A stretch of 63,920 nt of DNA, counting the filler, from Bigelowiella natans CCMP2755 (Eukaryota > Protista > Cercozoa): assembly GCA_000320545.1 (NCBI GenBank). It is 6 parts of 6 records of this genome, joined end to end, with 100 filler letters (N's around TTAATTAATTAA, not from the genome) between each part and the next. Parts side by side here need not be neighbours in the genome. Positions count along the whole stretch, not along the records: positions 1 to 18,647 come from ADNK01000696.1; positions 18,748 to 26,393 come from ADNK01002867.1; positions 26,494 to 54,224 come from ADNK01001299.1; 3 more parts are not named here. The stretch is one strand, 5' to 3'. Of the stretch, positions 921-50,417 are shown in pieces; the stretch's first letter is position 1; the number at the start of each line of letters is the position of its first letter. The position numbers and the translations under genes were made by a program. Below the pieces are notes generated by a model that saw only the letters and a program-made list of their open reading frames with translations, ran no database searches and had not been told where the DNA came from.

Positions 921-1548
921 TAGTACACATTGTTCGCTGGTCGGTAATGACGCTAAACACGATCGTTCGCTAGTTAGCTGTGTTTTGTCATCAGCTAGCA
1001 TCGTTCAAAAATTTCGTCGACACCAAGCTAGCGTTGCTGCGACGCACCATCGCGTGCTTGCACCACATATAATACATCACAGTGCAGCGCACGCATGTGC
1101 AGACACCAAATGACTCGCAGCTCGCAGCACGAATCTAAATAGCTAGATAGCTACCTAGGAATGATGGGCCTAACAATCTAATTGTGGCGCATGCATTGCA
1201 TGTGATTTGCACGTCTACACGTGGATGAGACGGCTGCTTGAACATCACATGCAGTGCACCTTTCTGGCATGTTCAAACATGCTAGCATGCCATTTTGATG
1301 CCAATGTGCACAAGTTCGTCAAAAATGCATGATGTGGTAACTCAAATATTGAGTCGCAGGCACGATGACAACATTGACCGAAAATGCGTGTATTGCATGT
1401 CTATCATTGCGATTTCACACTCCTAGCAACACTCATTTATTCTCGAAATGCATACGCACGCACACAGAAGTTGAGTCAAATGGTCAGTGCGGTTGGAGTT
1501 CAAGCCTCTATCTCGGTAACCACCTTTGTGTGGCAGATCTCTTTACTT

Positions 1549-4500
1549 TTACTTCGTCAAAACAAAATAATCTTCAACGGATAAATCGTCACTGAGAAGA
1601 TAAGTCCATTTCACTGCCGAGCTGTTGAAGACCTATTGTTGTATTGTACATTAGTAGTGTTCCAATTCATAGACGGTGTACATATATAAACTTTTGCCTC
1701 CTGCTGTAAAATTGACACTTTTCAATCGGGGACAATATAAGAAGCAGCTATAGCAATTACATCTTCTACCTCGAGAATTCCGGTGCCAAAATGGTGATCA
1801 TGCTTTGCAATCCACGCAGCACTGGTATTATACCTGTGTAGTTTAGTTGTTTATCATCGTCAGTGATCGCCTGCACTGCCATCACCATATGTAGTGGTGC
1901 ACACGTTGTTTAAAGTGATGATGAGTCCTCCTCCATCGCCACAATACTTTACCACCACCCGTCATGTCAGACAGGGGTAGTAGTAATAGTTAAAAATCGA
2001 TACTTATTTGACTTAAATTCCTGTTGAAAGGTGTATTTACGAAGCCGTTCTCTCTCTCTCTCTCTCTCTCTCTCTCTCTCTCTCTCGTGGGAATGGATCA
2101 TCACATATTGTGCTTTTGGTACTCGAATTCCTATTACTATTACTACTACTACTACCCATCAGGGCCTTCTGGGGTCATTTCATCACAACCAGCACCCCCA
2201 ACAGTAACGTGTGCAGTGTAAGATGGTGATGAGTAATTCTTCTGAACATCGCCCTATGTATTACGTATACAATTTGTACCATCATATCAGCAGCACCAAT
2301 ACAACCAGGCAGCGGTGTTTTGCTTCTAGGCGTTTTCATTCGCAAATCATCATCATCTTCATCCTCATCTACTACTACAACTACTACTACTACTACTACT
2401 ACCTTGTATACGGGAAATGTTCTTGTATACGAATGCTCGTGACCCGAAAAATAAATATCGACTTTATATTTATGGAACACTTCCTCCATAGCCTAGGAAT
2501 ATGAGAGAGAGTAGTAGTAGTAGCAGCAGCAGCAGCAGAGAAAAGAACATATGCAATAAAAAGACAGCAAAACAAAGTAATGCCGTACGCCGGCAAGTAT
2601 GAGAACGACGATGCATTGTTTATGTGCCGTTTGGTGCTGCACATGATCATCGAAACTACTACTACTACTACTACTACTACTACTACTACTACAATCTCTC
2701 CTCCTTTCTACGATCGTACGTCGTTTTATTTATCTTATTTCTGTTCCCGCTCTCTTGTTCTTGTTCTTTTTCTTCTTCTCACCGCTTGCAGCTCGGTGTG
2801 AATCTTATCGCTGTAAATAGGACGATGCCCCGCAGCAAAAATCCAGGGTCTTACATCTCTCTCATCTGTAATGATTGATTGATTGATTGATTGATTGATT
2901 GATTGTTTTTTTAGGGTTATGAAACAGAATAACATCTAATCGTCAGTGAAAAGACGATAAAGAATAATCCAAAGAGAGAACGGTGAGCACAGAAGTAAGC
3001 TGCCAGCAGTATATCAACTTGAGTTGAATCCAATACAACAACAACAACTACTACTACTACTACTACCAGCTGCCTTTGCAAGATCATTCTCCAACCACTT
3101 TAGATACTCTCCTAATAAACATCAATATAGTGTGATGTGATGATAAATAGCATCCTTTCGTCATGATGCTACTAGTTCTACTACTACTACTACTACTACT
3201 ACTACTACTACTAGGACCTTGAGTTCCAAAATGTCCAGCAGGAAGAATACCGGAATCACCTTTGTTCTCCTCCCTTTTATAATTATTATTATTATTATTT
3301 ATTACTATCACCATCATGTTGATGAATACTACGTGTGATAGGAATACTAGTAGAATCGCATAATAATAATAATACCAATCCAATCGATCAACCAAACAAC
3401 GCCTCCATCATGTGCAAAGACGATTGTACAATAATTTTGAGAGAGTTGGTTGTGATCAATGGTATTGCAGCATCATACCCTGCTCCTTTGAAGTCAGTTT
3501 CTGTGTCTACGACAACGAAATGCGCCAATCCATAGTTGAAGCTGTACCTACACAGAACAAGAAATAAGAATGTTCAACTCATGATGATGATGATGATGAT
3601 GATGATGATGATGGTGATGATGGTGAGAAACGGAGAATGTTGTTTTAAATTTTAAAAAGATTAAAACTGTAGATTTAAGTTTGTAAGTAATCTCTTGTCT
3701 CTGTCTTTTTGTTTATTCCTCCTTCTCCTCCTCCTTTTCTTGTTCTTCTTGTTCTTCTTTTTCTCTTCCTTCCTTCCTACCACATGTTGCTGGTAGCTCC
3801 ACTGGACTCAAACGGCATCTTGAAACTAAAATAAAAGATAAAGTAGCATGCATTATTAGAAGAGGATAGAACAACTTACGTAATGCTACTAATGATGAAA
3901 AGAATTATGATGATGATGATGATGATGATGGTGCAACCAGTTGATGTGATCAATTAGGTTTTTCAGCGTGTGTGTGTGTGTGTTACTATTAGCTTGCTAC
4001 TGCTAAACACATGATGCTAGTGCTACTGGTGCTGCTGCTCTGTTGGCTAGCACTTCTTACGATGCTACTAGTACCGGGTATTGTACGCCGTGAAGTTTGA
4101 CAAGTCTTTTCTTTTTTTCGAATCCTTTCAACAGTAGGGTAAGGAGAGGAGAGGGTAGGGTGGGTAGAAGAAGAAGATGATGATGATGATGATGATGATG
4201 AGGTTACTTACTTACATACTTACTTACAACATGATGGATGATCAAGAAGAAGAAGAAGAAGATGACGATGTTGATGAAGAGGAGGAGGATTAGAAGTACT
4301 ACATGATTGCACCCTCTCAATTGTCACTACCACCACCACTGCTGGTACGACTACAACGACTACTAGCACTATCTTGATCTTATCATCACCGCTAAGCAGA
4401 TTGGAGAATGACACTCGCTTTCGTGATTACCAGCAGCCACCATGTATGGCTTGTTGTTTGTCATGTTGGATATCCTGACAATTGATGATGATGATGATGA

Positions 4501-49575: not shown

Positions 49576-50417
49576 CAACTGACTTTCTGAATCGGAGGGA
49601 CATGGTGGCCAGGGGGTAGGGGTTAGTAGGGGTTTAGGGAGGGGGTTGTGGTTGCTCTGCTACTATACCAAATGTACAGTCAAGCATACTCATCAGAGCA
49701 TTATTTGTCATGGTAACCATGCGGCCAACCATGCATCATGTGTGCAATGACCGTTTGTTAATCTTATTAAAAATATAGATGGTTTTGAAGAAAAAACTGC
49801 TAAAAATTTTGCAGATAATATAAATCTATTTTAAAAATTTTATAAAAAAATTAAAAATAAAGTAACTCTAGCTAAAAATGATAAAAAAAAATCAAATAAA
49901 TTAAAAGGATCATTTAAAATTTGTTTTCTCTGTGTTTGTGTGTGTGGTGCGCGCGTGAAATGAAGCTACTAGCTGCATGTGCATGGTGGTTCTCTCCCTT
50001 TTAGCGCGCTCGTGCAAATGCACACACGAGCAGGAGTGCCCATTCCTGACGTCCCTGACACTCAATGCACAGCTGTGATTCAGATTCCAATAATAGACAC
50101 AGCAAAACACAATATATATTGCATGTCTAATATTCCATGCTTATGCTTGCGGTAAGGATGAACTTGATGCGATTGCGAGCTGCACGCACGCTACAGATGC
50201 CATTCTGCGCTGCATGCGTAGAATGATGATGCATGTTGTCATGTTAGAAACATTGGAAGAGGCGTGCATCTCATGGGCGCTGGACACTTTGTGCATTCAA
50301 GAATGTGTGGCTTTGTTGTGCAAAATTCTTTCTTTCTTTGTTTGCCCATGAAATTAACATTGTTCATTCAACATGTGCATGTCTAGATGTCTAGGTGTAC
50401 GATGTCGACCACACGAC

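Follow-up and report, generated by a model that had tools for sequence, protein, structure and literature searches.

Alternating and TA-free tracts past gene 3' ends in Bigelowiella natans: a possible scar of a TpA-specific mutator

Mutation-accumulation lines of the chlorarachniophyte alga Bigelowiella natans (Cercozoa) have revealed a form of hypermutation directed at a single dinucleotide: as the main text of a 2026 preprint by Mettrop et al. describes (bioRxiv 10.64898/2026.01.13.699255), two viral inserts held 231 of the 302 point mutations scored in the nuclear genome, and 230 of these 231 were A>G/T>C changes, all at TpA. The same text proposes an ADAT2-like deaminase as an unproven candidate for the process, describes the nucleocytoplasmic large DNA virus (NCLDV) region as transcriptionally silent, and delimits TA-poor DNA by cut-offs on 1-kb windows (rhoTA<=0.43, rho(CA+TG)>=1.52). 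The targets reported there are integrated NCLDV and virophage inserts, coding sequences (CDS) resembling those of transposable elements (TEs), and clusters of 3+ kb, and the process is framed as defence against foreign DNA. Here we examine 63,920 nucleotides of the genome of strain CCMP2755 (assembly GCA_000320545.1; six parts joined end to end, called the window below), in which eight tracts, T1 to T8, rich in words such as TGCA, CATG and CTAG, lie in the spacers past the 3' ends of host genes. They have in common with the published case the species and the TpA>TpG/CpA signature, and their TA-free cores, which we term class B, pass the 1-kb cut-offs. The tracts differ in being host spacers of 0.2-1.4 kb that mostly fall short of those cut-offs, and in an alternation of purines and pyrimidines (R/Y alternation) and an excess of CTAG that go undescribed in the main text of the preprint. 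That text has 0 occurrences of 'downstream', 'terminat' or 'CTAG', and holds no analysis by gene end or orientation.

In kinetoplastids, base J (JBP1/JBP2/JGT) marks strand-switch and termination regions, and the tracts resemble it in their place past the ends of transcription units, convergent junctions included. They differ from it in lying among monocistronic, intron-rich genes, in lacking the pairing and structural context discussed below, in losing TA most strongly away from the 3' end, and in being known here from sequence alone. In fungi, repeat-induced point mutation (RIP) saturates silent or repeated DNA with dinucleotide-specific transitions, can leak into adjoining single-copy DNA, and makes TpA from CpA/TpG. 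The likeness to the tracts, a comparison also found in the preprint, lies in the dinucleotide-specific transitions; their direction is the opposite, TpA being removed here, and a need for duplication is not indicated, T5 being single-copy. Dinoflagellate DNA is enriched in 5-hydroxymethyluracil (5hmU) at repeats and where gene arrays converge (PMC11071213, PMC11572971), and this mark shares with the tracts both convergent junctions and repeats as the marked DNA; it differs in belonging to megabase gene arrays and in having no sequence motif, and the available text of these accounts reports no TpA>TpG scar. Apicomplexan AP2 motifs, TGCATGCA and related (PMC6631176), are the same palindromic words that are over-represented in the non-coding DNA studied here, but they are described there as promoter sites, whereas here the words avoid promoters and, except for CTAG, are largely predictable from dinucleotides. 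Literature searches at the depth of titles and listings found no published account of the 3'-end geography described below, nor anything relevant on tracts at 3' ends or on modified DNA in B. natans.

The tracts and their location past gene 3' ends are real. We profiled 13 stops and 16 starts within this one window, taking the tract edges from an initial annotation and ourselves dividing T4 and T6 into a and b parts. With microsatellites masked, TGCA, CATG, GCAC and CTAG are 3.3-3.8 times as frequent in the eight tracts as in the rest of the window, and GCGC 2.8 times. A Markov-2 model trained on seven tract segments and scoring the eighth against 250-bp background windows gave z values of 2.3-4.5 for every segment; the held-out score was matched by no background window for seven of the eight segments, and by 1.2% of them for T3. 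The placement of the tracts in the initial annotation is thereby borne out. Comparison of the tracts with each other (blastn, word 7) returned only chance matches of 13-21 nt and microsatellites, and this lack of homology speaks against a single dispersed TE family. The earlier statement that they are not one repeat family accordingly holds across tracts, although one segment of T6 (37943-38304) has other copies of ~90% identity.

Because the edges had been drawn on tract words, we tested the geography on whole intervals delimited by codons or RNA ends, the GH20, SANT and WD40 stops that serve as bounds being approximate. The measure rho(TG+CA) is 1.27-1.65 in all eight intervals that contain a 3' end and 0.87-1.19 in all seven head-to-head intervals, while R/Y alternation is 0.52-0.62 against 0.43-0.51 (exact Mann-Whitney p=3.1e-4 in each case); CTAG per kb is also higher in the former (p=0.006, 8 versus 7 intervals). 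No separation is given by rho(TA), at 0.33-1.17 versus 0.46-1.08 (p=0.69), or by the whole-interval TG share (p=0.34), which we define as TG/(TA+TG) outside TAG context. The proposed geography, past 3' ends and away from divergent promoters, thus survives for the TG/CA excess, the alternation and CTAG, but not for TpA. By the same token, poverty in TA cannot serve as the hallmark of the tracts that it had been taken for, as rho(TA) overlaps that of the head-to-head intervals and the observed-to-expected ratio (o/e) of TA is low only in T4 (0.21) and T6 (0.23), with values of 1.29 in T3 and 1.06 in T7. Within the alternating segments, the TG share is 0.76-0.85 in six of eight, above all divergent intervals (0.39-0.67). 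The tracts and the head-to-head intervals contain none of the 23 (TA)>=5 arrays of the window, so that the intact (TA)n said to be kept in both introns and head-to-head intervals is in fact kept in introns only; three (CA/TG)>=5 arrays lie inside tracts. The tracts show no consistent strand bias of TG versus CA.

One tract occurs in each of the eight assessable intervals, down to those of 519 bp. Five of these junctions are convergent (T2, T3, T5, T7 and T8) and three tandem (T1, T4 and T6), while N gaps cut off at least four more gene ends, which fall outside the assessed set. The gene orientations on which this arrangement depends are borne out by spliced RNA contigs for three of 13 gene ends (TALE +, coiled-coil -, WD40 -), and agree with weak Pfam matches on the expected strand for the FkbM, GH20 and macro genes; those of the other seven were taken from open reading frames (ORFs) and our own reading. 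Two of the five N gaps coincide with junctions of convergent genes, at which one would expect a tract. The gaps themselves (~18648, ~26394, ~54225, ~60449 and ~62516) each carry mid-gap a 12-base linker resembling a six-frame stop, which is an artefact of assembly. Overall, the window has a GC content of 44.6% and a TpA frequency of 6.5%, against 6.0% in the preprint.

Transcript ends could be placed on both sides of one tract. Two runs, X15 and X18, were judged to be of RNA type from GT..AG splice joints and a loose poly(T) end, and were mapped over 32900-40380; introns in their contigs read GT..AG on the plus strand for the TALE gene and CT..AC for the coiled-coil and WD40 genes. The T5 spacer (35972..36407) extends from the end of the TALE(+) transcript at 35971 (X15; 35858 in X18) to the poly(A) end of the coiled-coil(-) transcript at 36408, which carries the poly(T) loose end in X18 (36479 in X15), and both runs have an RNA depth of 0 across the bin 36150-36399. 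A maximum-likelihood two-point analysis of the series of TA versus TG/CA between both stops, made blind to the RNA, placed its change points at 35996 and 36363, that is, 25-45 bp inside the RNA-defined ends. The ratio of TA to TG+CA is 18:103 in the spacer and 80:116 in the flanking untranslated regions (UTRs; p=8e-7), and GC rises from 0.34-0.36 in these UTRs to 0.53. DNA depth across T5 is flat and single-copy, with no further copy at 90%+. At this one locus the tract is an untranscribed gap, which sits between two transcript ends, i.e. where transcripts stop; the positions mapped are transcript ends and not stop sites of RNA polymerase II (Pol II). For T1-T4, T7 and T8 we infer the same untranscribed status.

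The tract T6 is likewise mostly without RNA coverage, apart from its right end (39134-39370), which is transcribed. Here a stretch of 217 bp (39172..39388) has no TA where 17 would be expected and overlaps both the short final exon and the 3' UTR of the WD40 gene, whose 3'-end RNA is seen as a contig at 39134-39498 (X18) and a joint at 39345-39573 (X15). This stretch is possibly old hypermutated DNA that was recruited as the terminal exon of the WD40 gene.

The clearest parallel to the published process is offered by class B, which comprises two cores. The first, T4a (30152..30755), has no TA in 604 bp, where 37.7 are expected, and contains a degenerate internal repeat with a spacing of ~185-240 bp; the second, T6a (38005..38369), has none in 365 bp, against 19 expected, and overlaps the 37943-38304 segment, whose other ~90% copies are in DNA contigs. 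In class B, G occupies 96% of the purine sites after T in all 3' contexts; the corresponding figure for introns, UTRs and promoters is 47-52%. The class B share of G at purine sites after C, A and G (0.31, 0.44 and 0.44) is little changed from that of other non-coding DNA (0.23-0.46, 0.35-0.42 and 0.33-0.42), and R/Y alternation is only slightly raised (0.53). The change is thus confined to TpA context. When every kind of local sequence tried (introns, UTRs, promoters and CDS) has its TA steps converted to TG/CA, the class B tetramer spectrum is obtained with r 0.82-0.87, and the published 1-kb cut-offs are passed only by windows starting at 29801-30601 (T4) and 37901-38501 (T6), the other six tracts failing them. 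We consider it very probable that these cores are products of the published TpA mutator. As a side observation, the first part of the T6 segment (37943-38032) has another genomic copy in RNA-type contigs, at a depth of 61 in X18, which implies that this repeat family has an expressed member elsewhere. The contigs of a DNA run, X5, cover T5 and T6 and differ from the window by five letters, none of them in T5 and four deriving from other copies of the T6 repeat.

In both long tandem spacers TA loss is strongest beside the following promoter and not at the termination site. The TG share in T4 is ~0.5-0.6 near the 3' end, rises steadily to 1.0 distally and then falls at the promoter edge, which is sharp on the side of the promoter of the gene starting at 29605(-); in T6 it is 0.67-0.70 at 38800-39100, reaches 1.0 distally and again falls at the promoter edge. 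The distal edge lies ~270 bp from the next gene in T6 (from the RNA start at 37736) and 550 bp in T4 (from the ATG at 29605).

The remaining tract DNA, which we term class A, comprises T1, T2, T3, T5, T7 and T8 together with the 3'-proximal parts of T4 and T6. T1 (940..1460; z 4.5, TG share 0.77) is flanked on one side by the PAP stop (1549-1551, -) and on the other by a TE-like element (1-925), and T2 (10600..11500; z 4.3, TG share 0.76), the strongest, lies between EF-like(+) and GH20(-) genes and holds an intact (CA)16. T3 (22640..22875; z 2.3), between FkbM(+) and PPR-like(-) genes, is weak and CTAG-rich without TA loss. T4b (30900..31450; TG share 0.85, with the gradient) is the segment on the side where the Cys-rich gene ends (stop 31999, -), and T6b (38600..39100; TG share 0.84) that on the side of the WD40 transcript end (~39134, -). 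T7 (45020..45390; z 3.2), between a macro(+) gene and a membrane-protein gene(-), is rich in CTAG and GCGC with little TA loss, and T8 (49930..50410; z 3.5, TG share 0.79) separates a SANT-like(+) gene from that of a single-alpha-helix protein(-). As a class, these segments have o/e values of 0.69 for TA, 1.69 for CA/TG, 1.65 for GC and 0.49 for CC/GG, an R/Y alternation of 0.62 and ~11.6 CTAG per kb. Alternating runs of 6+ take up 31% of their bases, against 8-15% elsewhere, and in such runs of 8+ only 10% of the pyrimidine-purine steps are TA, against 31-42% in introns and UTRs. The TG share outside TAG is 0.76 (0.49-0.51 elsewhere). Confinement to TpA context is partial: G makes up 0.69 of purines after T overall (against 0.47-0.52), with 0.71-0.80 in all contexts except before G, where it is 0.39, so that TAG is spared. 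The CTAG excess is correspondingly marked, with 46 instances against 8.3 expected under dinucleotide shuffles (z 13; z 5 under trinucleotide shuffles). It is raised in 3' UTRs too (5/kb) and scarce or lacking in class B. The 3' UTR of the TALE gene (35415-35971) is TA-rich (58 TA) and yet has six CTAG in 556 bp, a density like that of the tracts, which indicates that the CTAG excess begins inside the transcript. Short alternating patches of TG/CA/CG with class A words also occur in introns, at 26940-26970, 28235-28300, 23050-23110 and 24880-24920.

Simulations from 26 hand-tuned settings were used to ask which processes might produce the class A spectrum. TA loss alone is rejected as the source, with r<=0.68, because transitions preserve the R/Y pattern and cannot raise alternation. 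The mutator alone at equilibrium gave r 0.28-0.59 and TA slippage alone 0.26-0.37; slippage combined with the mutator, in settings matching the observed alternation, gave 0.70-0.75, as against a split-half r of 0.79 for the data themselves, and too much slippage brought the fit down to 0.43-0.45. The combined simulations approached the observed GC (0.42-0.46 versus 0.47), TA (0.45-0.60 versus 0.69), CC (0.44-0.50 versus 0.49), alternation (0.60-0.64 versus 0.62), TGCA (22-25 versus 21 per kb) and CATG (20-27 versus 20 per kb). An ad hoc TAA>TAG rule, added in three simulations, brought CTAG to 4-9/kb and r to 0.77-0.78. CpG decay as a source is rejected, as CG o/e is 0.93 in class A.

We lean, at slightly better than even, to the explanation that the tracts are the scar of the TpA-specific A:T>G:C mutator of B. 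natans acting on silent host DNA that extends from a poly(A) site to whichever promoter or poly(A) site follows, with TA slippage contributing to class A. Transcribed DNA and promoters would be shielded, or mutations there purged by selection, such that the scar would begin at the transcript end. In long tandem spacers the distal part, which would be the most silent and often the relic of a repeat or pseudogene, would be mutated to saturation, giving class B. Nearer the 3' end, slippage of (TA)n, which is frequent in the genome, would add TA steps that the mutator might then freeze into TG/CA mosaics, giving class A with its TGCA/CATG/GCAC words, high R/Y alternation, loss of CC/GG and modest net loss of TA. 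The terminator-like geography would be a by-product of a compact genome in which silent DNA other than promoters is found only past 3' ends. The initial suggestion of a mutational scar in untranscribed zones is in this respect supported by the TpA hypermutation reported for the species, by the matching TA-free cores and by the position of T5 between transcript ends. The CTAG excess lies outside this explanation and may be a separate 3'-end feature.

Several observations weigh against such a scar. The main text of the preprint describes the 71 mutations outside the viral regions as AT-biased and links the process to foreign DNA (bioRxiv 10.64898/2026.01.13.699255). T3 and T7 show no clear TA loss, and their TG shares (0.55 and 0.62) fall within the range of divergent intervals. 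The WD40 3' end includes a TA-free stretch that is transcribed. With zero substitutions inside T5 relative to X5, the comparison yields no direct mutation spectrum, and the data come from a single stretch in which both transcript ends are known for one of eight tracts. The G share in TAG context is 0.39 in class A and 0.94 in class B, and CTAG stands to CCAG+CTGG as 46:15 in the former and 1:16 in the latter (p=2e-7); as TAG is spared in the one class and not in the other, one unmodified mutator cannot make both. The simulations fall short at the same point: slippage plus mutator yields 0.6-2.0 CTAG per kb where 11.6 are observed, and none of the 23 simulations without an added rule exceeds 3.9/kb (0.1-2.4 with the mutator). 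Being single runs of each setting, with target segments picked for these very words, they amount to a plausibility check and not a fit.

It is CTAG that makes a selected terminator element the main rival, though an unlikely one: class A would be cis-acting DNA, made of palindromic protein-binding sites (CTAG/GCTAGC, TGCATG, GTGCAC) or of Z-DNA-prone or nucleosome-binding sequence, that helps to stop Pol II, and only class B would be mutator scars. Z-DNA is known to block polymerases. Besides the CTAG count itself, its elevation in 3' UTRs and its absence from class B, an excess of 4-mer palindromes (z 5.6-6.2) fits this proposal, as do the matches of the words to the AP2-domain motifs TGCATGCA, GCTAGC, GTGCAC and TAGCTA (PMC6631176). 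Those motifs, however, act in promoters according to that source, where the words are scarce here, and the top hexamers under trinucleotide shuffles form no fixed motif. Class A also lacks an excess of palindromes of 8 and 10 bases or looped hairpins (z -1.2 to 2.0 versus shuffles), which speaks against hairpin terminators of the intrinsic type and template-switch palindromes, and shows no 10-bp periodicity, while most of its spectrum is reproduced without selection. A relation to the thymine modifications, under which a base like J or 5hmU at TpA would mark silent DNA as well as zones of termination, and T>C would arise when the oxidised T mispairs, we hold to be improbable. The location past 3' ends agrees with it, as does the occurrence of dinoflagellate 5hmU at convergent boundaries and repeats (PMC11071213, PMC11572971). 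Further, TpA is symmetric, so that T>C and A>G are indistinguishable and the chemistry, be it deamination of A or oxidation of T, is not readable from the sequence, and the A-deaminase of the preprint is only a candidate, the string 'thymi' being absent from its main text. On the other hand, base J is found at T pairs 12 nt apart and near G-quadruplex-forming DNA (PMC4344527), and neither feature is seen in the tracts: T(N)12A occurs 374 times against 375 expected (o/e 1.00, as at spacings of 8-16, 0.95-1.06; a test of composition that is blind to modified bases), and the tracts hold 0 of 30 G3 and 7 of 185 G2 quadruplex motifs. GG/CC is moreover depleted, TA loss peaks away from the 3' end, 5hmU in Breviolum is motif-free in the accounts cited, and a literature search for Bigelowiella with JBP and thymine found no paper. 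Although the geography resembles that of J, membership of the tracts in a base J system is not supported, and the base-J-like mark defining Pol II termination that was first proposed for them fares no better; a role of the tracts in causing termination is hypothetical.

A general push from AT to GC in AT-rich spacers, through GC-biased gene conversion near gene ends or lost transcription-coupled repair, would account for the GC of T5 and for the slightly higher share that G has after A in class A (0.47 versus 0.35-0.42), and would suit the AT bias of 1.32 for intergenic single-nucleotide polymorphisms, below that of 2.65 for de novo mutations, given in the preprint (bioRxiv 10.64898/2026.01.13.699255). 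It is nonetheless very improbable, as the shift in class A falls mostly on purines after T and is small after C and G, CC/GG is depleted where it should be raised, and context-free simulations reach only r 0.17-0.24. Scarcely more probable is a proposal in which every tract would be the decayed remnant of some unrelated transposon or viral fragment that landed beyond a gene end and was then hypermutated as foreign DNA. The additional T6a copies, the internal repeat of T4a and the TE-like element beside T1 point in that direction, as does the presence of TE and viral domains among the TA-poor sequences of the preprint. Against it stand the flat depth of T5 and its lack of another copy at 90%+, and the occurrence of a tract in all eight assessable intervals, even the shortest. 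Searches were similarly negative: no significant Pfam match in 22 ORFs from T4 and T6, eight weak ones, all below the cut-off (best E 0.006), in 30 ORFs around them, no Rfam match, and, in viral contigs, no viral relative for the two ORFs tried and no locus. Finally, the mutator might itself be the read-out of a DNA or chromatin mark that covers each untranscribed gap starting at its poly(A) site, perhaps an oxidised thymine at TpA that aids termination, with CTAG protected or recognised, and not a weapon against foreign DNA; this we regard as distinctly unlikely.

Some observations concern the neighbouring elements and gene models. The TE-like element beside T1 has a minus-strand open frame of 178 aa that runs off the window and is preceded by a perfect 26-nt inverted repeat (569-594/895-920). 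We take the frame to be Gag-like from its appearance, a view without database support; a search of the ESM Atlas with ORF 2-490 gave a best score of 0.86, a lead only. TA is as frequent in the element as is normal (o/e 0.80-0.95 over 1-800), which indicates that it is not hypermutated, though it adjoins T1. The start given for the Cys-rich gene (33557-33329, -) is doubtful: when exon 1 is joined by eye to the AG that follows, a TGA comes into frame after 11 codons, and both X15 and X18 show an RNA depth of 0 over 33400-33899. Possible causes are an incorrect model, a pseudogene or recoding of the TGA. A previously unlisted first exon at 29605-29438 (-), with a signal-peptide-like leader and no Pfam match, is probably the true start of the gene formerly begun at ~28486; this start makes the (TA)76 array at 28825 intronic and T4 a tandem spacer. 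An exon of the WD40 gene (39964..40239, -) was 100% identical over 92 aa, by phmmer, to the B. natans gene model P0016 (EP00466_Bigelowiella_natans, jgi Bigna1|74212), in agreement with the species of the window. The end of an exon at 53166-53510 (+) is reminiscent of the beginning of an exonuclease III/AP-endonuclease domain; ORF 53044-53553 has no Pfam match. The raw RNA run X21 aligned 106 reads and gave no start or end calls, and a metagenome scan for orthologous loci gave distant FkbM-like matches only (77 loci; best long segments of 22-35% identity), which were not used.

The main text of the preprint leaves open how the targets of the TpA process are chosen, and reads it as immunity against foreign DNA (bioRxiv 10.64898/2026.01.13.699255). 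Should the same scar set in only tens of bases away from ordinary host poly(A) sites, then 'silent, unprotected DNA' would be a likelier rule of targeting than 'foreign DNA'. Were the reading as a mark to prove true, viral inserts would be hit merely as long silent gaps, and B. natans would possess a counterpart of base J, independent in origin and set among monocistronic genes, that could be mapped from the genome sequence itself. The step in TG/(TA+TG) would provide a sequence-only marker of transcript ends in this lineage, and the CTAG excess at 3' ends constitutes an unexplained but testable signal.

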